Assembly: GCA_045116295.1 (NCBI GenBank)
Contig: JBGULQ010000008.1
Location: forward strand, 13,147 to 77,146
Direction of reading: 5' to 3'
Source: Alphaproteobacteria bacterium
GTDB taxonomy: Bacteria > Pseudomonadota > Alphaproteobacteria > RF32 > CAG-239
DNA: 64,000 nt
Made by a program: the position numbers and the translations under genes. The number at the start of each line of letters is the position of its first letter. Position 1 is the first letter of the stretch. Positions 48,006-64,000 of the stretch are shown piece by piece. Below the pieces are notes generated by a model. It ran no database searches and was not told the origin of the DNA. It was given only the letters and a program-made list of their open reading frames with translations.

Positions 48006-48008
48006 TTG

Positions 48009-48083
48009 TTTTCTCCAATAAAAAAACCGCCCATTTTACGAGCGGCAGGTTAATAAAAAAGCGGAAACTTATCGTTTCCGCCA
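48009..48083 (-). repeat. leader repeat copy A: two tandem intrinsic-terminator hairpins followed by RBS and ATG of the tail-collar gene
   Basis: A 57-nt core (ccgcccatt...tttccgcca) is identical to 51461-51517. The minus strand reads GCGGAAAC-GATAA-GTTTCCGC-TTTTTT, then CCGCTC-GTAAAAT-GGGCGG-TTTTTT, then TTGGAGAAAA..ATG. Confidence 0.85.
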
Positions 48084-48114: not shown

Positions 48115-48429
48115 TTATTTGTGTTTCCAGTTATACATAGTATATAAAGGTCTTTGACAAGTACATGAAATTGGTGAATCTATTATATTCCATATACGAG
48201 GATGCCAATTAAACATGAGAGATATTTGCATACAAAAATAAATAAACAGCATACCAATAAATATATATTGTACATCCCTATTATGGTACCAAAACCATAG
48301 TCCGCAAAGAGATAATGTCATAGTATAGAGTACGTGATTACAAAAACTATAGCTCCATCCCCTGTATAAGTAAGCTATTAAGACAGTAATCAGACATCCG
48401 ATGTAAAAGGCTAATGTCAGCTTCTTCAT
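48115..48429 (-). CDS. small 3-TM hypothetical protein
   Basis: 104 aa and Trp/Tyr-rich. Its ATG overlaps the stop of an upstream 37-codon ORF (ATGA). Confidence 0.55.
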   Translation of the reverse strand: MKKLTLAFYIGCLITVLIAYLYRGWSYSFCNHVLYTMTLSLCGLWFWYHNRDVQYIFIGMLFIYFCMQISLMFNWHPRIWNIIDSPISCTCQRPLYTMYNWKHK

Positions 48430-48539
48430 TTTTCAAACCTACTACTCGAAAACAAATAAGCTTCTTGATCAAAAAAACTATAATTAGCAAACAAATAACC
48501 TAAAGACAAACCGATTATAAAATATATTACCTTTCTCAT
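48426..48539 (-). CDS. 37-aa single-TM peptide (not in the ORF track)
   Basis: My own translation is MRKVIYFIIGLSLGYLFANYSFFDQEAYLFSSSRFEK*. It is translationally coupled (ATGA) to the 104-aa ORF. Confidence 0.4.
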   Translation of the reverse strand: MRKVIYFIIGLSLGYLFANYSFFDQEAYLFSSSRFEK

Positions 48540-48620: not shown

Positions 48621-48809
48621 TTATTTGATCCATTCATTATTAACGGTATTAGGCACATCTGTTGTTTGTAATTCATTTACAGATTTTTCGGGATTTTGGT
48701 TGGGGGTGATGTAATAATATTCACTTTCCCCGGGTTGAGGATTTTGCCTTTGTATCGGGTGTTTTCCGTTAAAAACACCTTGTAAATATTCATAGGTTGT
48801 GTCAGGCAT
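48621..48809 (-). CDS. 62-aa protein consisting almost only of the shared MPDTTYEY N-terminal module
   Basis: Its first 51 aa differ at 3 positions from the first 51 aa of the gene at 51440. The DNA at 48657-48830 has 7 mismatches against 51288-51460 by my count. Confidence 0.55.
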   Translation of the reverse strand: MPDTTYEYLQGVFNGKHPIQRQNPQPGESEYYYITPNQNPEKSVNELQTTDVPNTVNNEWIK

Positions 48810-48855
48810 TGATTTTCTCCAACAAAAAAAATCAATTCGGGGGCTCTCTTATGGA

Positions 48856-49194
48856 TTACATGTTTGCATCAATTCGCGACGTGTTATAATAATCGAATAT
48901 GTGGGGCCAGTATATAAATGTCCCCAACAACGATAGTAAAAGAAAAATCTCGAATGATATTATATAATATTTTTTGAACACGGGAGATTTATATTTGTAA
49001 TGGATAAATTTTGTTATACATGCAAATAACAAAGAAAAATCAAAAATTACAAAGAAGATATTAAACGGGAATTTGCCAAGGTAGATTTCTATTTGGAGAT
49101 CAAGCAGAAATAAGCTGTTAAGAAACAAGAAACATCTCATATATCTCATTATTTCTCTAAAAACCACACCCTTATCTTTTTTGAAAAATTTCAT
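48856..49194 (-). CDS. small 3-TM protein, paralogue of 50315..50671
   Basis: 112 aa. MKFFKKDKGVVFREIMRYMRC... aligns over its full length with MKFFKKDKGIVFRNFIRDARC... Confidence 0.6.
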   Translation of the reverse strand: MKFFKKDKGVVFREIMRYMRCFLFLNSLFLLDLQIEIYLGKFPFNIFFVIFDFSLLFACITKFIHYKYKSPVFKKYYIISFEIFLLLSLLGTFIYWPHIFDYYNTSRIDANM

Positions 49195-49240
49195 TTGTGC
49201 TTCCTATCAGTCGTCTACATTTTTTAACAATAATAATAAA

Positions 49241-50278
49241 TTACTTCTGACCTTTGGTATTAAAATATGTTCCGCATTTGGAATATTTACCAGCATAATT
49301 TAAAATATAATTGAAAGGACAATCCGATGAAACAAAAAAGTCAGCATCTTCATCAATAACTTTGCAAGCGTCTTTCAAGCTAACTCGTTTCTCATCTTCT
49401 TTGGTTAATTTTACCTTATCCTTATCAATGTTTTTTTCTTCCGCAACTTCACTGATAATCATATGTTCTCTCAATGCTTCAATAAAATCTAACGGAGCCT
49501 TAAAACGTTCTTCTTGCGTCCCCCAATCAGCCCTTTTGTAAAAATCGTTAATATCCGTATATTTTTCATCAGAAGCTCTTGCCAATAGAGCCATTTGGTC
49601 ATTTTCCGCTATTCCTATTTCTTCTTTGAATTTTTCTCTCACTTTATTCGGATAATTAACCATTTCATATCCTTGGGCTTTGCAAAACTCCGGATACGCA
49701 TAAGTATGACGATATATCTCACCCACAGCAAGCCCTAAATGAAAAGCAGATCTATTCGTATCAGGCATATATTTATCTTTCACTTCAAACATACCAAAGA
49801 TTCCCAGAAAAACCAAAATTGTAAAAATGATAGGGAATCGTGTTAGAAAGCTTCTTTGAGGTTCATCAACATTTTGTTTTGCAGGTCGTAAAGCAAGAAT
49901 TAAATGGGTAATCGCAGTAATACCTGAAATCAGATATATACTCCATCTGATTTCAGGGAAAAAGGATATATCAACATCAAAAGTTAATGCCATTGTATAA
50001 AGTAAGAGAACATTAGCCAGAATATACCATGTTCCTGAACTACCAAAAGACCTGGAACGTTTTTGTATTAATGCAGTCAAACAATATATCACAAGGAAAA
50101 ATACGATAATGTATGATATAAGCTCAAAAACACAAAACTTAGTTATTATCCCAAGCAACAAAACAGCTGTTATGTAAGGTATACGATAAATAATTCCTTT
50201 GTAAGAAAAAAATAGTTTTAAAATATTCCCGGAAAATAAAATTTGATTTGCTTTTTCAAAAAACTGTTTAAATTGCAT
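49241..50278 (-). CDS. hypothetical protein: N-terminal 4-5 TM domain plus a roughly 170-aa soluble C-terminal domain
   Basis: I prefer the ATG at 50278, after AAGGAGAAAG. The product is 345 aa. I recognise no family. Confidence 0.55.
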   Translation of the reverse strand: MQFKQFFEKANQILFSGNILKLFFSYKGIIYRIPYITAVLLLGIITKFCVFELISYIIVFFLVIYCLTALIQKRSRSFGSSGTWYILANVLLLYTMALTFDVDISFFPEIRWSIYLISGITAITHLILALRPAKQNVDEPQRSFLTRFPIIFTILVFLGIFGMFEVKDKYMPDTNRSAFHLGLAVGEIYRHTYAYPEFCKAQGYEMVNYPNKVREKFKEEIGIAENDQMALLARASDEKYTDINDFYKRADWGTQEERFKAPLDFIEALREHMIISEVAEEKNIDKDKVKLTKEDEKRVSLKDACKVIDEDADFFVSSDCPFNYILNYAGKYSKCGTYFNTKGQK

Positions 50279-50314
50279 GATCTTTCTCCTTGTGGCAATC
50301 CTATAATACATTAT

Positions 50315-50671
50315 TTATTCATCAAAAAGAGGAACGTATCTATTATCTAGTTTGGAATATGTAAGGTATGATAATGTATGTTTGCAGTAAAGTACAAAAC
50401 CTATTATTGAAAGCAACATGAGTACCTGACTAAATAAGACATAGTATCTTTTTAGTTTTCTGATTTTGAATTTGCGATATATAAATTTGGTCAAACAAGA
50501 ACCGATTAACATAAAATCAAAAAAATAAAAGAATGTATCCCACACATTATTTTGATGATGTAATTCTATTTGATAAATAATTAGGAATATATTATTTATC
50601 CATAAGACACATCTAGCATCTCTTATAAAATTTCTAAAAACTATACCTTTATCTTTTTTAAAAAATTTCAT
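50315..50671 (-). CDS. small 3-TM protein, paralogue of 48856..49194
   Basis: 118 aa with the same N-terminal MKFFKKDKG motif and the same topology. Confidence 0.6.
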   Translation of the reverse strand: MKFFKKDKGIVFRNFIRDARCVLWINNIFLIIYQIELHHQNNVWDTFFYFFDFMLIGSCLTKFIYRKFKIRKLKRYYVLFSQVLMLLSIIGFVLYCKHTLSYLTYSKLDNRYVPLFDE

Positions 50672-50707
50672 TGGTGTCCCTGTGTAAATGAGTGATTTAA
50701 CAATTTA

Positions 50708-51440
50708 TTATTTCTTTCTGTAGTTGCTTATAGAATTATGTAGAAGATTCTTGCCTTCTCCCGCTAATTTATTGATTATTGAGCGTATTATAGGACGTTC
50801 AACATTGTTGCCAAAAGCTTTCATTCCTCCATATGTACCTAATCCGCCACTAATTCCGCCTAGCGATGCATCAACAATAACATCTTTGGCATTGTTATTC
50901 TCATTATTACCATATCCGTCTAATGCCGACATTGCAATATTATTTTTATATATTTGTGATGATTTTACCCACCATGGTGCGGTTTTGGAATATTTGAATA
51001 GGGGAACACGGTTAGCTATTGAACCAACTCCCTCCGCAATGCGCGTATGCTATCGGATGTTCTTTGCGGGTTTGTTTTAGGATATTGCGTCTATTGTCAC
51101 GTGCTTCTTTATATCCACGACTAAAAGCTTCCCCGATGCTTTCTTGTTTATTATTGCCCAACATATTGCCTACCGCATACCCTGCCCCTTTTATTCCGCC
51201 TTCAATCTCATCGGCAAAACCGGCAGAAAGACCGTTTAGGGCGGCACTTGTTAATCCTTCGGATGTTTGTAGAATATTATTAGATATATCTGTTGTTTGT
51301 AATTCATTTACAGATTTTTCGGGATTTTGGTTGCGGGTGATGTAATAATATTCACTTTCCCCAGGTTGAGGATTTTGTCTTTGTATCGGGTATTCTCCGT
51401 TAAAAACACCTTGTAAATATTCATAAGTTGTGTCTGGCAT
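50708..51440 (-). pseudogene. glycine-zipper-rich protein with the MPDTTYEY N-terminal module, split by a frameshift near 51012-51049
   Basis: The first frame, 51440..51012, gives 142 aa. The second frame is open from 51049 down to 50708: HTRIAEGVGSIANRVPLFKY...ASLGGISGGLGTYGGMKAFGNN... I traced the two frames by hand and they overlap by about 38 nt. Confidence 0.6.
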
Positions 51441-51443
51441 TGA

Positions 51444-51517
51444 TTTTCTCCAACAAAAAACCGCCCATTTTACGAGCGGCAGGTTAATAAAAAAGCGGAA
51501 ACTTATCGTTTCCGCCA
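51444..51517 (-). repeat. leader repeat copy B: the same tandem terminator hairpins, followed by RBS and ATG of the MPDTTYEY gene
   Basis: See copy A. Outside the identical 57-nt core there is one substitution and one A-run length difference. Confidence 0.85.
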
Positions 51518-51537
51518 TAGTATATGTTCTTTGTAAT

Positions 51538-51607: not shown

Positions 51608-51684
51608 TGGTAGGCGCGCAGGGATTCGAACCCTGGACCCACTGATTAAGAGTCAGTTGCTCTAGCCAACTGAGCTACGCACCC
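51608..51684 (-). tRNA. tRNA-Lys (anticodon CUU), CCA encoded
   Basis: The reverse complement is GGGTGCG-TA-GCTC-AGTTGGCTA-GAGC-A-ACTGA-CTCTTAA-TCAGT-GGGTC-CAGGG-TTCGAAT-CCCTG-CGCGCCT-A-CCA. I folded the cloverleaf by hand. The acceptor stem contains two G-U pairs. Confidence 0.9.
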
Positions 51685-54065: not shown

Positions 54066-55889
54066 CTATTTTATTTGGCTGCGATATAATGAAGAATATA
54101 CACCATCTTCTTTGGCAATGAGTTCTTCGTGCGTACCTTCTTCAACAATCTCACCATAGTTAACAACTACAATTCTATCAGCATTGCGAACCGTAGACAA
54201 ACGGTGAGCAATAATCAGTACGGTACGATCTTTCATAAGGTTATCGATAGCTTGTTGAACCACCGCTTCTGACTTGTTATCAAGGGCTGATGTAGCCTCG
54301 TCCAGAATGACAATTGGAGCGTTTTTGATAAAGGCGCGGGCGATAGCTATACGCTGTTTTTGACCGCCGGAGAGCAGAACACCGCGCTCACCGATTTGGG
54401 TATCAAGACCTTTCTCAAGGCTTGATATAAACTCCTCAAGGCAGGCTGATCTGACAGCATAGCTGATTTCTTCCTCTGTAGCGTCTTCTTTGCCAAGCAA
54501 AATATTGTCACGGATTGAACCATCAAACAAAAAATTGTCCTGAAATACAATGGCAATTTTATCGCGTAACGAGTTGAGATCGTATTGGCGAATATCAACA
54601 CCGTCAATTTGGACTTCTCCAGATTTGACATCATAAAATCGTGGCAGAAGATTTACTAATGTAGTTTTACCACCACCTGAATTGCCAACAAATGCAACAG
54701 TTTGCCCTACTTTGATTGACAAGTTGATGTTTTTAAGAACCGGTTTGTTTTTTACGTAAGAAAAAGATACGTTTTTGTAGTCAATTTGATCTTTAACGCC
54801 ATTCAACATTATAGGATTTGCGCAGTTATGGATAGATGGAACTCTTTCCAACAGCTCAAATATGCGTTCCATGGCCATTAAAGACATCTGGACATTGTTG
54901 TAGTTGTTACCGATTGATTTAATCGGATTGTAGAGCATGATTAAAGCGGTGATAAACGAAACAAAGTTTCCGGCTGTGATTTCATGATGGACAATCAGAT
55001 AGCTCCCTGTCCAGATTACCAACGCAATACCTAAAGATACAATAAAGTGCATCAGCGGTGACATCATACCGGTACGTTGAACCATTTTTATACCGAGTTT
55101 AAAAACCTGTTTTAGTGTATCATGAAAACGCTTGCGCTGATAATCATACAGATTATATGAGGTAATAATACGATTGCCGTTATATGTTTCGTTATAATGG
55201 CTCATAACCGCCGCACCGGAAAATATAGTCTTGTCCATAACCGATTTGATGCGCCTGCGTACAGTGGTCAGCGGATATAATGCTCCAAATAATATTGCTA
55301 CGGCAATTAATGCCAACTGCCACGAATTATAAAACAAAACAGCAATTAATGATACTGATGAGAAAACTCGGGTAGTAAATAATTTTAAATTGGCAAGCAG
55401 GCCGTTACATGCAGTATCAACATCGTGATTGTAGCGCATCATGACATTGCCGGAAGTAGTGGTATCAAAATAATGGGCATCGTTCAACATCAACTTGTCA
55501 AACAAATCCATTTTAACATCATTGGCAATTTTGCGCCCTACCCAAGTGTTGAGATACGTAGCAGCATAGTTAAGTGAGCTTTGCAAACAGCTGAATACAA
55601 TAATCAGCAACGGAATATAGTTGGCAACATTGGTTGATTTTTCAACCATAACCACATCCATGTATGGTTTGAGTGACCAAGCGATGACTGCGTCCATCGA
55701 ACCAATCGGAATAGTGATTAGAACCGAAATTAAAGCTCTAATCCAATATGGTTTGACATAAGGTAATATCTTGCGATAATTGACCACAAGATTAGTCGAC
55801 ATAATCTTTTGTATAAGTTTCTTAAACATTATTTTCTTCGCTAAAATTAACTTTGACGTGATATTAGCTGATTTTGTGTATTTTGCCAA
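54066..55889 (-). CDS. ABC exporter, fused permease and ATPase (MsbA-like)
   Basis: 607-aa ORF with 6 TM segments plus an NBD (GNSGGGKTTLVNLL, LSGGQKQRIAIARA, ILDEATSALD). The true start may be an internal Met around 55829. Confidence 0.85.
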   Translation of the reverse strand: MAKYTKSANITSKLILAKKIMFKKLIQKIMSTNLVVNYRKILPYVKPYWIRALISVLITIPIGSMDAVIAWSLKPYMDVVMVEKSTNVANYIPLLIIVFSCLQSSLNYAATYLNTWVGRKIANDVKMDLFDKLMLNDAHYFDTTTSGNVMMRYNHDVDTACNGLLANLKLFTTRVFSSVSLIAVLFYNSWQLALIAVAILFGALYPLTTVRRRIKSVMDKTIFSGAAVMSHYNETYNGNRIITSYNLYDYQRKRFHDTLKQVFKLGIKMVQRTGMMSPLMHFIVSLGIALVIWTGSYLIVHHEITAGNFVSFITALIMLYNPIKSIGNNYNNVQMSLMAMERIFELLERVPSIHNCANPIMLNGVKDQIDYKNVSFSYVKNKPVLKNINLSIKVGQTVAFVGNSGGGKTTLVNLLPRFYDVKSGEVQIDGVDIRQYDLNSLRDKIAIVFQDNFLFDGSIRDNILLGKEDATEEEISYAVRSACLEEFISSLEKGLDTQIGERGVLLSGGQKQRIAIARAFIKNAPIVILDEATSALDNKSEAVVQQAIDNLMKDRTVLIIAHRLSTVRNADRIVVVNYGEIVEEGTHEELIAKEDGVYSSLYRSQIK

Positions 55890-55903: not shown

Positions 55904-56131
55904 TTATTTACAAAGCTCTAGCTCTTGGCGAAGTTTATCTATTCTGGCCAACCATTCCCAAAAACGTGTATGCCGACTATAATCAACATTTTCAAGCTCT
56001 TTAGCCACTTCAGGGCCTGCTGTAGGATAAGACGGACAAAAGTTATAATTTGTTTTGGCGCATGAGCTCAAGCAAAGCATCGCGCCCAGCATGGGGGCTA
56101 GAATATATGGCAGATTTTTTCTTTTCAACAT
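55904..56131 (-). CDS. o-spanin (Rz1-like outer-membrane lipoprotein)
   Basis: 75 aa. It has the lipobox LCLSS-C and is Pro-rich after the Cys. Its start is embedded in the 3' part of the i-spanin gene in another frame. Confidence 0.7.
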   Translation of the reverse strand: MLKRKNLPYILAPMLGAMLCLSSCAKTNYNFCPSYPTAGPEVAKELENVDYSRHTRFWEWLARIDKLRQELELCK

Positions 56132-56249
56132 ATTTGATGACCTCTACTTGTTTGGTTACAATTTCTGTGCGAGCATGAGAGCGTCCCAGTAAATATGAAA
56201 AAACAAATATTGTTATACAGATACCGAATATCAATGCTGTCTTTGCCAT
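56043..56249 (-). CDS. i-spanin (Rz-like)
   Basis: 68 aa with an N-terminal TM segment (ALIFGICITIFVFSYLL) and then a charged helical segment. It overlaps the o-spanin by 89 nt. Confidence 0.65.
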   Translation of the reverse strand: MAKTALIFGICITIFVFSYLLGRSHARTEIVTKQVEVIKYVEKKKSAIYSSPHAGRDALLELMRQNKL

Positions 56250-56250
56250 T

Positions 56251-56394
56251 TTACCAGAGTTCCTTTATGTTTATACCGACTGCAAACATTACGGCAATCA
56301 TTCCCCAAAGAAGCCAATATATTTTTCGGTGACGCAGTGCCATACGTATTATCCATTTCAAAAAACGATAACGGCAGTTTTTATGTTCTTCCAT
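56251..56394 (-). CDS. 47-aa single-TM lysis-cassette protein (not in the ORF track)
   Basis: My own translation is MEEHKNCRYRFLKWIIRMALRHRKIYWLLWGMIAVMFAVGINIKELW*. The ATG is preceded by an AGGAG RBS. Confidence 0.45.
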   Translation of the reverse strand: MEEHKNCRYRFLKWIIRMALRHRKIYWLLWGMIAVMFAVGINIKELW

Positions 56395-56406
56395 TTAGAT
56401 CTCCTA

Positions 56407-56847
56407 TTATTTGATGTCATTATAGAACAGATGATGGGTAGTTTCATAGCAAGGACTATGATGTTTTGCCCATATTGGAAATATGCTGCGGGTGTGATAA
56501 AAGGTTGCGTTATTGGTAAAATCTATAAGTCTTCCGCTAATGGCCTTATCTGCAATTTTTAGGCATAAACAAAATATTTTATCGTTTGAATTTAATTTGA
56601 GAATTTTTGAAAAATTTGGATCGGTCTTGTTCCAACAGCTGAATTGGTATTTTTTCAGGCATGTTTGCTTGAGATCGGGTATTTTAATGCCGTCATCAAG
56701 ACGATAACCGGTAAACCATTTGCGGGCATTGAAGCGGTTCACAATCACACAGGCAACCGCTTCCATACCTTCAATACCATCGCCCCGCGCCTCTCCCCAT
56801 AGTGTAGCGGCCATTATGTGCAAATCATCCCAATCATCAGGAGACAT
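56407..56847 (-). CDS. endolysin, SleB/CwlJ-type cell-wall hydrolase (Hydrolase_2)
   Basis: 146 aa with the AATLWGEARGDGIEGMEAVACVIVNR motif. Confidence 0.8.
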   Translation of the reverse strand: MSPDDWDDLHIMAATLWGEARGDGIEGMEAVACVIVNRFNARKWFTGYRLDDGIKIPDLKQTCLKKYQFSCWNKTDPNFSKILKLNSNDKIFCLCLKIADKAISGRLIDFTNNATFYHTRSIFPIWAKHHSPCYETTHHLFYNDIK

Positions 56848-57121
56848 TTTTGCCTCCTTTATGTTTGCAATTTAACAAAAGATCAAGTTTGGTTTCAAAA
56901 CTATCAAATTTGCTTTCAAGTTTTGCCAACATTATGTTTTGCTGATTTTGCATCATGATTGCCGAGGCTGTTTCTTTATCAGCTTTATCTATGCGTTGCA
57001 GCACACCTTCCATGCGTTCTTCCAGACGGCCTTTCCAAGACCCGAGTTTAACCAAATTCCACAACATGCCGGCTAAGGCAGCTATACCGGATATTCCGCC
57101 GATTGTGTTAATAAAATCCAT
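56837..57121 (-). CDS. holin-like protein (1 TM plus coiled coil)
   Basis: The ATG at 57121 follows GGAGGTGAT. The product is 94 aa with MDFINTIGGISGIAALAGMLWNLV at its start. Confidence 0.5.
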   Translation of the reverse strand: MDFINTIGGISGIAALAGMLWNLVKLGSWKGRLEERMEGVLQRIDKADKETASAIMMQNQQNIMLAKLESKFDSFETKLDLLLNCKHKGGKNVS

Positions 57122-57160
57122 TATCACCTCCATAAAAAAAGGGGCAGAAACTGCCCCCTG

Positions 57161-57850
57161 TTAAAAACCAATTGCTAACCAAAACCACTTACCCAAGTCA
57201 CCACTGCCAAGAGTAAAACCTGTTAGAGAATGAGTAATTACAGAGGCTATGGAAAAGTTTGATGGAGCAAGCGCATCAACTATGTGCGTCAGTGATATTG
57301 AATAGGATGTAGTTTCAAACGGAATCTCATATGTGCAAGTTGTTCCAGAGCTATCATCAAGTTCAATAATTCCCCATTGTATTGTCAAACCACCGGAATA
57401 CTTGACATGATTTGTACCTTGACTAACAATGTTGCCACCGTTAACAAAGGCTGTAGTGGCAACATTGGGAGATAAATCGTTAAGCGAGGGAGTTACGGCT
57501 TGTAATGATCCTTCAAATATCTTATCTCCGCTTATAGTTTGTTCGGTGTCAGTTGTGACATAAGTCTGTTCATATTCGGCAATAGTATTATTTATGTCAT
57601 TGATGCCTGCTTGTGTAGCATTATTAATAGATGTAATTGATTGAGTAGTTTCAATGTCAATAACTTGTTTTTGGTCATTTACATAGTCAGCAAGATCCGG
57701 TTTAGATACCGCAGCAACATAATTGTCAATATCGTCTCGTCCATATTTAACGTATTGGATATCTGCGGAAGTGTTTAAGGCCGCTTCATCCTGAAAGTAA
57801 ACATCAAAATCTTTTGAAGCGTAGTTTTCAAAAATATTAAGTTCGGTCAT
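57161..57850 (-). CDS. phage tail fibre protein
   Basis: The ATG at 57850 follows AAGGAG. The product is 229 aa with the ISGDKIFEGSLQAVTPSLNDLSPNVATTAFV fibre motif. Confidence 0.7.
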   Translation of the reverse strand: MTELNIFENYASKDFDVYFQDEAALNTSADIQYVKYGRDDIDNYVAAVSKPDLADYVNDQKQVIDIETTQSITSINNATQAGINDINNTIAEYEQTYVTTDTEQTISGDKIFEGSLQAVTPSLNDLSPNVATTAFVNGGNIVSQGTNHVKYSGGLTIQWGIIELDDSSGTTCTYEIPFETTSYSISLTHIVDALAPSNFSIASVITHSLTGFTLGSGDLGKWFWLAIGF

Positions 57851-57851
57851 T

Positions 57852-58199
57852 TTACACTCCTTCAGTAATTTGGAATATTGCATTTTGACTTATATCCTGC
57901 GGAAAGACGGTATGCACATTGCCACTGGCAAAAATAATTTTTATGTTGGCTTCATAAGAACCAACTGCAAGGCGTGAATGTTGCGGAGTAATTTTGATTA
58001 AGGCCTGACCATTGCCGGCATCAATGATGTCTCCTGCAATGTGCAGAACAGTGGTTTCGTCTTGGTCTTTGACATCAAGATATATGTTTGCACCGGATAT
58101 ATCCATTACTGATCCGTCTTTATGTTTGAAACGCATGGCAATATCAAAGCTATCGCCTTGTCTAACCAAAATTCCGTTTGGTGTCATTGTTCCTGTCAT
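57852..58199 (-). CDS. small Ig-like (BppU_N-like) virion protein
   Basis: The ATG at 58199 follows AGGAG. The product is 115 aa with GILVRQGDSFDIAMRF...YEANIKI beta-sandwich-like periodicity. Confidence 0.45.
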   Translation of the reverse strand: MTGTMTPNGILVRQGDSFDIAMRFKHKDGSVMDISGANIYLDVKDQDETTVLHIAGDIIDAGNGQALIKITPQHSRLAVGSYEANIKIIFASGNVHTVFPQDISQNAIFQITEGV

Positions 58200-58203
58200 G
58201 GCA

Positions 58204-59109
58204 TTACTCCTTGTTTGGCATTTGGCAGGCAAGGTCATATCTCAGTAGGAGGTATCCGTCTGCATCTTCATAGACTGCTTCAGGAATTATTTTAAGAACA
58301 TCTTGTGCCAGTAACCCAATTTGCGGAGTTGTACTTCCCTTGAAATTGAAACAATAAACCGTTAGCCCATTGTCAAGTTTTCCGACCGGTTTAATGTTTT
58401 CTTTTAATCTTACATCTGAAAACAACATAAGACCGACCTGAGCGGCAGTACCAAGTGCGTCTCTTCCTGCTTGAATACGTGCATCAGTGTTACTCTGTTT
58501 GGCGGCTGCAATTCTACTATCTGCGCCATGTTGAATATTGTAGATATTCATAGCATTATCATAGCCTGAATGTCCAAGCTGCAACTGTGAAATAATCTGG
58601 CTTAAATAATTGTTCTTTGCATTGTTACCAAAATTGGCAACCAATGCATTGTTGTTTAAACTTTGATTGAAAGCGTTTTGACCGCTCAATACTGATTGAT
58701 AAGCTGCTTGATTATAAGCATTGTTTTGACTGTTTTGCAGATTACTCATTGCACGGTTATAGGCATCGCTACCAACTGTAATACCCTGATTTTGAAGGCG
58801 GGTTTCGAGGTCATTGGTTTGTTGAGCAAATTGCGGTCTGAGACGATCTGTATATGCCTGATAAGTCGCATTTTCGGCACGTTTGCGAGCCTCATCAGAA
58901 CCATCGATTTCGTATGTATAGTTATTCATATTGTTCATATTTTGGCTCATGTTATAGGCGTTGTTGAGCAAATTTTGAACAGTATTATCGTAATTTGTTG
59001 TGTTATAATTTTGCAAATAATTTAAGATGTTACTCTCTGATTTATATGGGGAAGTACTGGCATTGCCGGCACCCAATAGTTTTCCAACTGCTTTAAATCC
59101 GCTAGACAT
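58204..59109 (-). CDS. Q/N-rich virion protein with a C-terminal S74 intramolecular-chaperone (autoproteolytic) domain
   Basis: 301 aa. The C-terminus is FSDVRLKENIKPVGKLDNGLTVYCFNFKG...IGLLAQDV..IPEAV. Confidence 0.7.
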   Translation of the reverse strand: MSSGFKAVGKLLGAGNASTSPYKSESNILNYLQNYNTTNYDNTVQNLLNNAYNMSQNMNNMNNYTYEIDGSDEARKRAENATYQAYTDRLRPQFAQQTNDLETRLQNQGITVGSDAYNRAMSNLQNSQNNAYNQAAYQSVLSGQNAFNQSLNNNALVANFGNNAKNNYLSQIISQLQLGHSGYDNAMNIYNIQHGADSRIAAAKQSNTDARIQAGRDALGTAAQVGLMLFSDVRLKENIKPVGKLDNGLTVYCFNFKGSTTPQIGLLAQDVLKIIPEAVYEDADGYLLLRYDLACQMPNKE

Positions 59110-59566
59110 TTTTTTCTCCTGTTGATTGATGATTGATAAATTTACATTCTTTGGCCAACATGCCTAAAACAAGTGCATCTTGGTCATCTGAAAAATATTG
59201 ACGCATTTTGCCCTCAAGAACAAAACCACATCTGGTTGCTAATGAAATAGAGGCATGATTATCCGGACGTATAAGGGCATTGAGCCGACGACATTTTAGA
59301 ACATTGAATGCAATGCCAAAAATTTGTTTTAAGCAAATCTTTGAGCACCAATGTTTATCCGTGGTATATATACTGATCCATGCCGTATCATTTAACTGAT
59401 AATCGCTAAAAACAACTCCTCCGACAATTTTATTTTGGTGTATAATTGCAAAAGAATAGCCTTTTAACATTTCTTCCGGTGACAAACCTAAACCGAATGA
59501 TACATAACGCGCAATATATTCGCTTTGATCATATACCAATTTAGACAATGCCGGCTCCCTGTTCAA
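59102..59566 (-). CDS. GNAT (RimJ/RimL-like) N-acetyltransferase embedded in the tail module
   Basis: 154 aa with ..CRRLNALIRPDNHASISLATRCGFVLEGKMRQYF... It overlaps both neighbouring genes. Confidence 0.7.
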   Translation of the reverse strand: MNREPALSKLVYDQSEYIARYVSFGLGLSPEEMLKGYSFAIIHQNKIVGGVVFSDYQLNDTAWISIYTTDKHWCSKICLKQIFGIAFNVLKCRRLNALIRPDNHASISLATRCGFVLEGKMRQYFSDDQDALVLGMLAKECKFINHQSTGEKNV

Positions 59567-61088
59567 AACGAAAACCGGTATTATACCACTCTATAAGATT
59601 GCCCTTAGTTTTGGTCTTAAAAACTACTGATGCCTTAAAACCGGTTGCACTATTAGCAATCCATTGACTATGTGTGATACCTTTTAAGGTTGACCATTTG
59701 GTACCAATTTGATGTTCAAGACTACTCCATTTACTCTGATTCCATTTAGTGCCGTTATGATTACCCATGTTTTCGGAATATTCACGTTCACTGTCATCAA
59801 AATCCATATTGGCATATATATTCAAACTAAAAACCGCAGAACTTTTGGTTCGCGGATTTAACATTTGTATTTTTTTAAGATTGGGTGTACCAAGTGAACA
59901 ATAAGCTTGATGGACATTGCCGCAAATAGCAATTCCGTTATCAGAATGTCCTTCATCAAATAAAAATACACCGCCGTCAGAACCAAAGTATAGTCTTCCT
60001 TCATATAAACACCAACAAAAAGAATATATATTGGTAAATCTGCACCAAGCTCCGGAGCTCATGTTGATTACATGTTGCTCAAATTGTCCGCCGACAGGAA
60101 CATTGAATAAGACATATCCACCTCGTGGATATATAATACTCTGCCAACCGGATATATTTTTTCCGGTTTTGACACGAGATAAAACCAAACCACGAATTTT
60201 ATCACTGTATGCGGCTTTACCGGTTGAACTTTCTCCGAGAGGTAAAACAGATGAAAGAGGGACATAACCTTCTTCACAGATGACAATTATGTCGCCCTGA
60301 TATTGCATTGTACAGTGTCTTCCGATCGGACGGCTGATAAAATATTTGCCACGTAATGACCAGTTATCAGCGTTGCCGGGATTGGTACCGGAATAAACCA
60401 AAACCTCTCCTTCGGTAGTAATAAAAACAGTAAGGTCGTCAATACCCTGCCCGCCGTCCTGCGTCCAACTTGCTATGGCGGCAATGCTTCCACCACGGGT
60501 GACCAATGTTGATAAATCGACACTGCTCAGTACTCCCTCAACCTCTCCGACGCCTGATGAATACCAATATGTCAAAGAATCTTTTTCAATATAAAAAACA
60601 CGTTGTTTTGAGACTGTTAGATTACATAACTTTTTGATATCAAGTCCCTCTCCGGCAATGTCAGTATTTTTCCATGTCCAAACGTCTTCTTCATTTTTAT
60701 AGTAGGTTTGGGGAAAATCCATACCATTGACCAGAAGTAACCGATTTCGAAACTGAACATAGTTCCAATCATTATAATTTAAGTTATCTACATCTACCGT
60801 ATAGTTGCCAGATGTGATATCAATAATTTTTCCATTGGCGGCAGCAAATAGTCGACTATTTTGTGAAGAAGAAAAAGTAATCAAACTTTCGATTTTGAGT
60901 CCCAGTCCTTCCAATGCATACATTTTGTATCCGCCACGCAAACATACATTAGTTTCAGACGGATAATAATTATCCATGGTAATAGCATCGGTTTCAGACA
61001 TATTATCAAAACTGTCGCGGCAATTAAGTCCGCCTATCGGTGCCGGCAAAATATAGTTCTGCGATCGGCTAATTGCTCTGTTTAACAT
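59541..61088 (-). CDS. tail tubular protein B-like (T7 gp12-like nozzle), short form
   Basis: 515 aa. The N-terminus ..PIGGLNCRDSFDNMSETDAITMDNYYP.. resembles the T7 gp12 start (..KGGISQQPDILRYPDQG..). It occupies the position right after a gp11-like gene. Confidence 0.45.
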   Translation of the reverse strand: MLNRAISRSQNYILPAPIGGLNCRDSFDNMSETDAITMDNYYPSETNVCLRGGYKMYALEGLGLKIESLITFSSSQNSRLFAAANGKIIDITSGNYTVDVDNLNYNDWNYVQFRNRLLLVNGMDFPQTYYKNEEDVWTWKNTDIAGEGLDIKKLCNLTVSKQRVFYIEKDSLTYWYSSGVGEVEGVLSSVDLSTLVTRGGSIAAIASWTQDGGQGIDDLTVFITTEGEVLVYSGTNPGNADNWSLRGKYFISRPIGRHCTMQYQGDIIVICEEGYVPLSSVLPLGESSTGKAAYSDKIRGLVLSRVKTGKNISGWQSIIYPRGGYVLFNVPVGGQFEQHVINMSSGAWCRFTNIYSFCWCLYEGRLYFGSDGGVFLFDEGHSDNGIAICGNVHQAYCSLGTPNLKKIQMLNPRTKSSAVFSLNIYANMDFDDSEREYSENMGNHNGTKWNQSKWSSLEHQIGTKWSTLKGITHSQWIANSATGFKASVVFKTKTKGNLIEWYNTGFRFEQGAGIV

Positions 61089-61776
61089 ATGCTATTCCTC
61101 CGTCGGATATACTGTCGGTCATGCCTCCTAAACTTATATCTTTATTAGCTAATGTTGAGCCAAAACGTTTACGACATTCGGTTTCATACTCACGATATTC
61201 TTCATCATAAGCAATGCCGTTTCTAGCCTGAAGACGCCATCTGATTGCAAGTTTGACAAGATATTCATCAAAAACAGGAATATCCGTATCTTTGGTAATT
61301 TCTGTTTTTTCGGTGAACAGGCCATTTTCGTACGCGACAACAGAAGAACGATATTGAAAAACAATTTTTATTCCCTCAGGAGGCGGAGTTAAAAAACGAA
61401 ACATCGAATTTTGAATTTTAAATTTAATTGTATTATCATCGTTATGAAAATATTTTTCATGCTGCCATTGTTCGGGACGAATTGAACCAATAATTTTTTC
61501 ATTGCCGTCTTTTATATAGACCGTATTGTTTAATAACTGAAAAAAATCAGGGCAAAATGCTTTAATTAGATAATCAGTTTTATTTTTAGAGGTTATCAAT
61601 TCTCCGTCCTTGGTAAGCTCTTGCCAATCACCATAGCGCAACAGACCATTGAGCGCATCTTTAGCAATGCTCTGAAAAACGCGATTGTTTTGACTGCTTG
61701 TAGTAAATAAGCTTTGCGGTTCTTGGACGCAAGCCAAATTAGCTGCGTCTTGGCATATTTCGAGTATGTTTTTCAT
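61069..61776 (-). CDS. tail tubular protein A-like (T7 gp11-like adaptor)
   Basis: 235 aa. It shows similarity in layout to gp11: N-terminal ..ICQDAANLACVQEPQSL.. and C-terminal ..YLVKLAIRWRLQARNG..EEYREYETECRKRF. Confidence 0.4.
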   Translation of the reverse strand: MKNILEICQDAANLACVQEPQSLFTTSSQNNRVFQSIAKDALNGLLRYGDWQELTKDGELITSKNKTDYLIKAFCPDFFQLLNNTVYIKDGNEKIIGSIRPEQWQHEKYFHNDDNTIKFKIQNSMFRFLTPPPEGIKIVFQYRSSVVAYENGLFTEKTEITKDTDIPVFDEYLVKLAIRWRLQARNGIAYDEEYREYETECRKRFGSTLANKDISLGGMTDSISDGGIAYVKQSN

Positions 61777-62323
61777 TTTTGCTCCTTATTTTTTTTGATT
61801 GTTGCAAATTATCAACTTTCGTTTCTAACTCTTTGATACGTTGTTGGTATTCTTGTTCTTTTTTTTGCCACTCAACAAGAGAGAGATTGCCTTTGGCTTG
61901 TTCAACAAACTTAATTGCAAGTTCGCGTTCTTTGCTGACACCAAGCTCTTCTGCATGTGAAGCATCTAGTTTGGTTAAATGCTCAACAGTATAAATTCCA
62001 CGAACCTTAAGACCGGCAATTTCAGCTGCATCTAAAAATGCAAATTGCTCTAACGGAGTGCCATCTTCAACACATTTTTTAGCTTGTTTATATCGAGCAT
62101 ATTCATTGGGAAAACGCCTTATTTTATCTGGTGTTGCCGGCTGATTATAAACTTCGGAGCTGTTATCTTTTATGCGTATTTCACAAAAACAAACCAACTT
62201 AAATTTTGGCAACCCGTCTTTGGTAATTTGAGAAGTTTTTATTGCCTGATCATAAAAACGTGCAATTACCCCCTCCTCAGAGTTGCCGTTATGTATCACT
62301 TTTTCAAAAGTTGAAAAATCCAT
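61739..62323 (-). CDS. phage hypothetical protein (coiled-coil C-terminus)
   Basis: 194 aa. It lies between the capsid terminator and the gp11-like gene. Confidence 0.5.
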   Translation of the reverse strand: MDFSTFEKVIHNGNSEEGVIARFYDQAIKTSQITKDGLPKFKLVCFCEIRIKDNSSEVYNQPATPDKIRRFPNEYARYKQAKKCVEDGTPLEQFAFLDAAEIAGLKVRGIYTVEHLTKLDASHAEELGVSKERELAIKFVEQAKGNLSLVEWQKKEQEYQQRIKELETKVDNLQQSKKIRSKNEKHTRNMPRRS

Positions 62324-62335
62324 TACTGTCTCCTT

Positions 62336-62368
62336 TATAAAAAAGCGGCGTCATTACTGACGCCGCTC
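62336..62368 (-). terminator. intrinsic terminator immediately after the major capsid gene
   Basis: The minus strand reads GCGGCGTCA-GTAA-TGACGCCGC-TTTTTTATAAAGGAGACAGTAATG. Confidence 0.8.
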
Positions 62369-62384
62369 ATTTTTGTTTTATTGA

Positions 62385-63368
62385 TTATCCTTCATTTGAT
62401 GACGTATCAGTGAAGACTACACCTTGCAAAGCGGCATTTGACATAGTCAAGTTACCGGCCCAACCGATGATTTTATAAATTGCATCTTGGTTGACTGACA
62501 TTCTCTCACCACCGATTACTTTCATGTTGCGGTCTTTATGAGTACGCAAATACAAATAATTGGTATTAAGAAAATACATTTTGCCATCGGGGCAGCAACC
62601 ACCTTGACCACCATCACATACAACATCTGCACCCTTAAAGCGCAAGGCTTCAAAACCGGCATCTGCAAGTCTTGTATCAACAAAACGCTGCTGAGCAGTT
62701 AATGACTGTTCAAACAATGAATACCACTCATCACCGGTGACAATCAAATCCGGCTTATCAATGCCGCGTGTCAATGACATATACATTGAATCCATTGCTG
62801 AACGCAGACTATCAGATGTAATCGTGCCGGTAAGTTCTTTGGCTTTGTTACGCCAAAACTCGTTACCTGCGGTTGCACGATTGATGTTGCCTACGGTGCC
62901 ACTGCTTGGAAAATCAGCTACCAACAAACTCAACCCACCAATTGATTTGCCGTTATAACCTGTACCATCACTGTATACAGCTTCGGCCATTTTATTGCTC
63001 ATAGTCTTAACTGCGTTTTCAATGCGCTTTTCAAACAAATCTATCATTTGATATTGACCAGAATTTTTGAGCAATTCTTCACCGGAAATGGCAACAGGAA
63101 CAGCACATAATTTTAATGAGTATTCGGCTGCGCTGAACAGTTGTTTTGGGGTATATGTAATTGTGTCATATCCTGAATACCAAGACAAGTCACCTTCTCC
63201 GTATTCAAGTTCTTCAATAATTTTTGAACCGCCGGCAAGCATGCGGTTGTGTCCTTTTTCTTGCAGACGTTTTAACAATGCATTGTTGTTAGAAACAGCA
63301 TCTGCAAGCTGGCCGCTACGGCTGGTAAGTGTGGTTGTAAAAATATCATTATAATCGTTATTAGCCAT
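62385..63368 (-). CDS. phage major capsid protein
   Basis: 327 aa. I assign it from its position after the scaffold-like gene, its size, the strong terminator behind it, and general likeness to T7 gp10-class capsid proteins. Confidence 0.6.
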   Translation of the reverse strand: MANNDYNDIFTTTLTSRSGQLADAVSNNNALLKRLQEKGHNRMLAGGSKIIEELEYGEGDLSWYSGYDTITYTPKQLFSAAEYSLKLCAVPVAISGEELLKNSGQYQMIDLFEKRIENAVKTMSNKMAEAVYSDGTGYNGKSIGGLSLLVADFPSSGTVGNINRATAGNEFWRNKAKELTGTITSDSLRSAMDSMYMSLTRGIDKPDLIVTGDEWYSLFEQSLTAQQRFVDTRLADAGFEALRFKGADVVCDGGQGGCCPDGKMYFLNTNYLYLRTHKDRNMKVIGGERMSVNQDAIYKIIGWAGNLTMSNAALQGVVFTDTSSNEG

Positions 63369-63390
63369 GTTTTTATCCTTCTATAATTGA

Positions 63391-64000
63391 TTATTGTTCA
63401 TCCAATTGTGCAAATTGGCGTTCAAGAATTTGTCTTGTGGTAAGACCTGTGTAATCATCATCATTGCTACGATGTCCGGTTACAGAAAAAGCAGCCTCTT
63501 TGGCTGCTTTTGCTTCTTCAGCTTTTGCCAATAATTCAGCCTCATGTTTGTTCTTGTCGTCAAACGCAGTACGCAATGCAGATACACTCTCAATCAGCAT
63601 ATTCATGCCGTTTAGCAATGCATCAGTCTTGGCACTGTTTTCGCTACAAATTTGGGCGGTATTGCTATCAGAACTTTGTCCCATATCAATACCATATACG
63701 CGAGCCAAAAATTGCAAAACTGCCGCCGGATTTTGCTCAATCAGATCCTCTGCCAAAATAAGATGTTCAATCCACTCTCTGGCGTTTTTGAACCCTCTTT
63801 TTGAGCCTTTTGAGCTGAAAGCATCATCAATAAAACGCCGAGCGTTGACCTCGGCGTTTAATTCTTCAAGCGATTTTGAAAATTCGCCTTCTCGTTCATA
63901 AAGATATTTGCGAACTTCAAATGGCAATCCTTTAAACAATTCGCGAATTTCTCCGATATAGGCTTCGGGAGCTTCTGCAAACTGTTCATCAGAAACAATA
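63391..64000 (-). CDS. scaffolding-like protein (partial; frame stays open to the window edge)
   Basis: It has an Ala/Glu-rich helical C-terminus (..HEAELLAKAEEAKAAKEAAF..). The M shown at 63939 in the track is a TTG codon, and the frame continues upstream (..IVSDEQFAEAPEAYIGEIRELFKGL..). Confidence 0.5.
   Translation of the reverse strand, partial: IVSDEQFAEAPEAYIGEIRELFKGLPFEVRKYLYEREGEFSKSLEELNAEVNARRFIDDAFSSKGSKRGFKNAREWIEHLILAEDLIEQNPAAVLQFLARVYGIDMGQSSDSNTAQICSENSAKTDALLNGMNMLIESVSALRTAFDDKNKHEAELLAKAEEAKAAKEAAFSVTGHRSNDDDYTGLTTRQILERQFAQLDEQ

Follow-up and report, generated by a model that had tools for sequence, protein, structure and literature searches.

A single extra base splits a candidate toxin gene within a toxin/immunity-type array of an uncultured alphaproteobacterium

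The locus belongs to an uncultured alphaproteobacterium, and its relatives that carry this gene family are rumen and gut MAGs. All positions below are those of the window, the whole stretch of 64,000 nucleotides that was analysed. The array spans 4.5 kb at ~30% GC, as compared to ~40% GC for the genome, and is bounded by a tRNA-Lys(CTT) gene and a tail-collar fibre-like gene. Along the minus strand, the tRNA-Lys gene is followed by a leader with hairpins and an RBS, the broken candidate toxin gene, a 118-aa gene and a 356-aa gene. The order continues with a 112-aa paralogue, a 62-aa copy of the toxin N-terminus, genes of 37 aa and 104 aa, the leader again and the collar gene. The features are as follows.

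51608..51684, minus strand: tRNA-Lys(CTT), at the edge of the low-GC island
51440..51517, minus strand: leader with two terminator-like hairpins and then an RBS; a second copy lies at 48006-48083, before the collar gene
51012..51440, minus strand: 5' fragment of the broken candidate toxin gene (frame A), 142 aa
51278..51440, minus strand: coding sequence of the N-terminal module, ~55 aa, MPDTTYEYLQGVFNG...; forms repeat D1 with 48647-48829
51043, minus strand: single extra base causing the frameshift, C on the minus strand
50708..51049, minus strand: 3' fragment of the broken candidate toxin gene (frame B), 113 codons
50315..50671, minus strand: 118-aa polytopic membrane protein, intact, immunity candidate; starts 37 nt past the toxin stop
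49241..50311, minus strand: 356-aa membrane protein inside the array
48856..49194, minus strand: 112-aa paralogue of the immunity candidate, an orphan in the window
48621..48809, minus strand: 62-aa remnant of a second candidate toxin, with the same N-terminal module and the Tlde1-type body deleted as compared to genome G003
48115..48539, minus strand: two small membrane protein genes, 37 and 104 aa
47187..48005, minus strand: 272-aa phage tail-collar fibre-like gene, the last of the array, behind a copy of the leader
55904-64000 and beyond (G000:C8 to ~82700; L064): phage-like element

The two 78-nt leader copies (51440-51517 and 48006-48083) are 91% identical and precede the toxin gene and the collar gene, respectively. 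Copies are also found at the cassette starts in genomes G016 and G003. The hairpin leader belongs to no Rfam family, the best score being that of freshwater-2, at 29 bits and below the threshold of 49.9. Expression behind this leader may need antitermination.

At the same locus, G016 has only the toxin gene, the 118-aa gene and the collar gene, and G003 has three toxin genes with membrane genes interleaved. In G003, the homologue of the 112-aa protein comes after a deletion variant of the toxin, and the homologue of the 104-aa protein comes after a Tlde1-type toxin. The 62-aa gene of the window is a leftover of this Tlde1-type toxin, with ~420 nt missing and the downstream 104-aa membrane gene kept. 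The 356-aa protein has a membrane domain at its N-terminus, is charged in its C-terminal half and belongs to no known family; the start of its gene is also present behind a toxin deletion variant in the ENA contig L062. Sequence searches of Pfam, NCBIfam and the PDB found no family for the N-terminal module, the immunity candidates or the 356-aa protein. The collar-fibre gene is a paralogue of a fibre gene that lies ~5 kb from the capsid gene inside the phage-like element in most genomes of the genus. In the lineage of the window (its own genome G000, G016 and G003), it stands beside toxin genes instead, and it likewise adjoins a toxin gene in G015. At window position 51534, G016 has ~178 nt more between the tRNA-Lys gene and the leader.

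The toxin gene is read in two frames of the minus strand, whose coordinates are accurate as given in the initial annotation. Frame A runs from the ATG at 51440 to the TAA at 51014-51012, encodes 142 aa and ends ..RKEHPIAYAHCGGSWFNS. Frame B, offset by +1, opens at 51049 right behind a TAG at 51052-51050, reads HTRIAEGVGSIANRVPLFKY... from there, and continues for 113 codons to the stop at 50710-50708. Its first possible start is the ATG at 50932, with no ATG, GTG or TTG upstream. The two frames overlap by 38 nt (51049-51012). The frame A product comprises the N-terminal module and the first 3-4 helices of the toxin domain and ends in 10 out-of-frame residues, and an exact look-up of this 142-aa fragment returned no record.

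A search across 60 related genomes found the whole protein as a single 243-aa ORF in the same-genus genome G016 (91% identity in the search), where it reads ...RKEHPIAYGIAEGVGSIANRVP... across this region. Read through at 51043, the window protein is also 243 aa long and is identical to the G016 orthologue in 235 of 243 residues (97%). A second intact 243-aa copy, 92% identical, is present in the ENA rumen assembly ERZ1667847. In the DNA alignment with G016, the extra base at 51043 is the sole indel in the toxin gene, the lesion context being ACGCGCATT in the window and ACG-GCATT in the intact copies, and the 412 nt surrounding the insertion show no other difference. Among the distant relatives (25-40% identity), all 24 that were aligned, taken from the 570 cluster representatives of a profile search, cross the lesion site in a single frame. 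The comparison with orthologues for which the initial annotation had called thus revealed contiguous ORFs, not the two separate genes that would have spoken against its proposal. Its proposal of one gene split by a frameshift is borne out, and so is that of a single joined protein, with a read-through length of 243 aa in place of the estimated 245 aa or so. The break falls at residue 132/133, within helix 4 of the modelled core (residues 129-142), and the frameshift removes the half of the domain that bears the invariant YGxG and the second glycine-rich stretch.

If the extra base were a sequencing or assembly error of the MAG, the gene would be intact in the organism. The genome is indeed a MAG in 31 contigs, and the gene is undecayed apart from this one base and otherwise matches the intact G016 copy around it. 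A further, younger mutation that would mark the gene as long dead is absent, and when genome and metagenome collections were scanned for the two alleles, the intact one of G016 was the only hit. However, the Logan contig of SRR25030104, built from raw reads by a different assembler, is 100% identical to the window across 2,645 nt (51317..48673) and contains the extra base without a branch; since this run may share the sample or library of the MAG, the contig may be independent in method and software only. The extra base also lies outside any homopolymer, in the context CGCGC. In addition, 4,364 nt of adjacent core-gene flank aligned with G016 contain no gaps, and ORFs of at least 150 aa span 84.5% of the 1.37-Mb genome, a coverage which argues that the assembly is not rich in indels.

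Different knock-outs of the same gene in other strains also speak against an error, given that they show loss to be biologically common here. A rumen contig of Stewart-2019 carries a GGA to TGA change at codon 109, where the RGY motif has its invariant G; it is without the extra base, and the start of its immunity gene is intact. In G003 and ERZ27317979, residue 22 is followed directly by residue 129, owing to an internal deletion (aa 23-128). A related copy in G001 has an in-frame TAG, and the second toxin copy of the window (62 aa) is itself a deletion remnant. Judging by these alleles, rumen strains have lost this toxin by three or four independent routes. A 151-aa protein, P0003, was considered as another truncated allele and was rejected as a scaffold-gap artefact. 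Taken together, this indirect evidence favours a genuine lesion, and we regard an error at 51043 as unlikely. If the lesion is real, the 412 nt otherwise the same as in G016 imply that it is recent. A recently inactivated gene is accordingly the best supported of the three origins initially offered for the split, the others being a sequencing indel and a programmed frameshift.

The glycine-rich character of the protein, on which the initial annotation had based its idea of a membrane-inserting glycine zipper, is real. Both of the quoted glycine-rich stretches are present, and GxxxG occurs 9 times, as compared to 3.3 +/- 1.6 in composition-preserving shuffles (p ~0.003). However, the protein contains 12% Gly and its maximal 19-residue Kyte-Doolittle mean is 0.92, so that it has no hydrophobic segment and membrane insertion through a glycine zipper is best treated as a working hypothesis. 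The residues G70, G74, D77, E78, Y110, R118, P129, G175 and G177 are invariant in the bacterial and phage members of the family, the motif G70xxxG74 included. The conserved acidic and basic residues among them (D77, E78 and R118) leave room for a different mechanism.

Sequence searches found no relative of the toxin domain in Pfam, NCBIfam or the PDB. With 8 sequences, AlphaFold gave no usable model (pLDDT 41); with 24 sequences, it gave a four-helix bundle with pLDDT 75-93 for residues 51-142 only, and the remainder of the domain is predicted to be helical with low confidence. Foldseek found no match in the PDB (best E 1.9), and its one hit in BFVD, a weak one, was a structural protein of the phage Mx8 virion. 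These searches give no support to a pore-former fold, colicin-like or other.

The domain does match the phage profile phrog_5880 (E 7.1e-7), residues 39-199 aligning with profile positions 28-191 of 661. Among phage relatives, E values go down to 1e-48, and longer relatives of 500-1,100 aa, one of them with an N-terminal glucosaminidase, fit the profile far better. The virion module of viral contigs and of a Silvanigrella phage encodes phrog_5880 proteins of 540-680 aa, which come ahead of the tail fibres and behind a relative of a protein 'released from the phage upon host infection'. The window protein lacks the full-length phrog_5880 architecture, as it covers only the N-terminal third and its gene lies outside a structural module. 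As judged from these alignments, the domain appears to be borrowed from, or common to, phage virion proteins.

The first ~55 residues (MPDTTYEYLQGVFNG.HPIQRQNP..GES.YYY) recur throughout the genus ahead of unrelated domains. The partners of this MPDTTYEY-type module are the present helical domain, Tlde1, GH108 with PG_binding_3, an SAA-like domain and several unknown domains. A single N-terminal region is therefore combined with several unrelated C-terminal domains, as in polymorphic toxins, and recognized toxin domains are among them (PF10908 Tlde1, 7e-9; PF05838 GH108, 1.6e-19). The module itself is probably disordered. Conversely, the toxin domain (aa ~55-243) is also found behind two other N-terminal modules, one of which is PG_binding_1. 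The PG_binding_1 proteins P0070-P0131 form a second polymorphic family, in which PG_binding_1 is the shared N-terminus and the C-termini are pesticin-like, SAA-like or the present toxin domain.

A small membrane protein gene lies downstream of each toxin gene. P0001 and P0002 diverge in the last 50 toxin residues, and the membrane proteins encoded behind them diverge in their central part. The array bears what appears to be the signature of a polymorphic toxin/immunity system, from which we infer the toxicity of one product and the immunity function of the other. The family would be of the polymorphic-toxin kind, with an N-terminal module and a toxin domain that are both undescribed so far. 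The initial label of candidate toxin fits this context, given the module shared with Tlde1, GH108 and SAA-like proteins, the membrane genes after the toxin genes and the orphan remnants. The sister cassettes suggest that the target compartment is the cell envelope.

Several known systems resemble the array in part. As in the Neisseria MafB/MafI islands (PMC4287609), CDI systems and Rhs orphan modules, a conserved N-terminus is combined with swappable C-terminal toxin domains, a small cognate gene (a candidate in the present array) lies directly downstream, and tandem arrays contain truncated or orphan copies in a low-GC island with cassette-start repeats that allow recombination. Unlike these systems, the present array has an unrelated N-terminal module, no signal peptide and none of their defining domains; no MafA-like or other known secretion partner (TPS, T6SS) was found here. 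Its toxins are short (160-320 aa), and its immunity candidates are polytopic membrane proteins.

The contact-dependent glycine-zipper bacteriocin CdzC/CdzD of Caulobacter consists of proteins of 84-86 aa with 75% Gly or small hydrophobic residues and an RTX-like leader (PMC5380434). The Cdz toxins are very hydrophobic and rely on type I secretion through the adjacent cdzAB (PMC5380434). An alphaproteobacterial host, GxxxG motifs and a small transmembrane immunity protein, here a candidate, are common to both systems. In contrast, the protein described here has 243 aa, 12% Gly, no hydrophobic stretch and charged residues in its conserved core, and no membrane-fusion or outer-membrane secretion component is adjacent. 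The nearest ABC transporter gene in the tested stretch (54066-55889) is set off from the array by a U32 gene and the tRNA-Lys gene and fits the ABC-transporter profile phrog_2392 at positions 147-717 of 726 only; no membrane-fusion gene was seen in the tested stretch around it. A Cdz-like glycine-zipper bacteriocin was rejected on size (243 aa as compared to a very hydrophobic, Gly/Ala/Val/Ile-rich peptide of 5-10 kDa with an extended GxxxGxxxG motif), on the Gly content of 12% and on the hydropathy value of 0.92.

With the phrog_5880 virion proteins, the toxin shares a homologous N-terminal domain of ~200 aa with the same invariant residues, and fusions to cell-wall domains occur on both sides (glucosaminidase in the phages, PG_binding_1 in the bacterial versions). 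However, the phage proteins (540-680 aa, some longer) have a long C-terminal part and are encoded in virion modules, whereas in the bacterial versions the domain stands alone after a toxin-type N-terminal module, and a membrane protein gene comes next. The likeness to colicins and S-pyocins lies in the probably disordered N-terminus, the candidate C-terminal killing domain, the candidate immunity gene downstream, the absence of a signal peptide, a nearby lysis cassette for possible release, and the pesticin-like domain in the sister family. Unlike in colicins, no similarity to the colicin pore domain in sequence or fold and no receptor-binding domain was recognized. By analogy with them, uptake through the N-terminal module can be conjectured.

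As to export, the toxin has no signal peptide. VipB of the T6SS was found in 0 of 29 genus genomes, a contractile sheath in 2 of 29, and Hcp is missing from the window's own genome, so delivery by a T6SS or by contractile injection was rejected. The link to an export system that is typical of polymorphic toxins was not seen among these components. The phage-like element, on the other side of the tRNA-Lys gene, contains capsid, tail, fibre and lysis genes and begins ~4.5 kb from the array, with the lysis cassette nearest. Past the window end it continues with a Terminase_3 large terminase, a small-terminase-like gene and a homologue of the putative portal of G006. Its capsid gene, syntenic and single-copy in 21 of 29 genus genomes (73-98% identity), always has the same U32-family core gene as its neighbour and exceeds that gene (57-98% identity) in conservation. 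The conservation and synteny of the capsid suggest vertical inheritance under selection, and the element is possibly domesticated.

The toxin genes and the element meet in G006, a sister species. There, two module-bearing toxin genes and two small membrane genes are located inside the element, just upstream of terS/terL; this insert also holds a 452-aa glycine-rich gene (L063, G006:C11:63453-67976). An SAA-domain gene and an 84-aa membrane gene lie between terL and the putative portal (G006:C11:69762-70697). On the other hand, G001 and G022 have module-bearing genes without such a capsid, and many arrays are located more than 40 kb from the phage-like element.

These observations bear on a second alternative, that the protein is no freestanding toxin and is instead a phage-derived virion or ejection-type protein of the neighbouring element, whose loss would affect the particle. 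The homology to the N-terminus of phrog_5880 proteins, whose genes have one of the 'ejected on infection' type on one side and the tail fibres on the other, the weak fold match to the Mx8 protein, the G006 cassettes beside terS/terL, and the conservation and synteny of the element across the genus are all consistent with it. We nevertheless give it little credence, given that the same module carries the classic antibacterial enzyme domains Tlde1 and GH108, that the arrays combine the cassettes with orphan remnants and with small membrane genes that co-vary, and that module-bearing genes are found in the two capsid-less genomes and far from the element.

For a freestanding toxin, the most economical route would be release when the lysis genes of the element fire, followed by entry through the N-terminal module in the manner of colicin-like bacteriocins. 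A bolder proposal, which we put forward as improbable, is that the module-bearing proteins are cargo of a phage-like particle, with the module as a packaging or ejection signal and a domesticated capsid that delivers toxins between bacteria. The phrog_5880-type domain would then be part of an ejection protein and insert in the target envelope, and the small membrane proteins would protect kin. The virion relatives in phages, the conserved capsid, the G006 insertion and the fibre paralogue that shares the toxin leader are not at odds with such cargo. However, the two capsid-less genomes with module-bearing genes and the distant arrays argue against a strict dependence on the element.

We conclude that an antibacterial toxin candidate of 243 aa, part of a toxin/immunity array, has probably been inactivated recently and genuinely by the single-base insertion at 51043, as a case of ordinary pseudogenization. 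The proposed protein would consist of the ~55-aa N-terminal module and an all-helical, GxxxG-rich C-terminal domain (aa ~55-243). It would be released by lysis, be taken up through its module, and act at the envelope or inner membrane of the target. The insertion would cut this protein short past residue 132, with the second half of the domain lost, and would leave the 118-aa membrane protein gene, the presumed immunity gene, whole. With the toxin lost and this gene intact, the strain would be a non-producer that is probably still immune. Such a loss is the step from producer to immune non-producer that is expected in bacteriocin ecology.

The frameshift itself is routine, and its context is more useful: arrays of short toxin candidates occur in gut and rumen alphaproteobacteria that have 1.4-Mb genomes and lack a T6SS. 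The arrays are physically tied to a conserved phage-like element and offer a gene set for a possibly new route of export or uptake. The natural intact, nonsense, frameshift and deletion alleles are usable as controls.

The third origin initially offered, a programmed frameshift (here +1, at the ribosome), can be dismissed almost entirely, and so can phase variation as a way to keep the gene expressible. Frame B is open right past the point of the shift, with 38 nt shared by the two frames, but inspection of the overlap (GCA TAC GCG CAT TGC GGA GGG AGT TGG TTC AAT AGC TAA) revealed neither the slippery heptamer that the initial annotation had suggested looking for nor any other known +1 or -1 slippery motif, including a known +1 slippery codon pair, and no homopolymer or tandem-repeat tract is present for slipped-strand switching. 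The sole Shine-Dalgarno-like run, GGAGGGAG, sits downstream of where the homology resumes; the intact orthologues have it too, as the codons for AEGV. Furthermore, the homology resumes mid-codon, so a ribosome would have to skip a base within a codon to regain the conserved protein, and neither the orthologues nor the aligned relatives share the frameshift. The absence of a slippery site and the single ORFs in all of the relatives found make programmed frameshifting very unlikely.

A step in the divergence from G016 coincides with the insertion (window 51060-50648), with 6 substitutions in the 234 nt upstream and 0 in the 395 nt downstream. Past these 395 substitution-free nt, the immunity gene has 7 substitutions as compared to G016. 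The step may represent a recombination junction that coincides with the indel.
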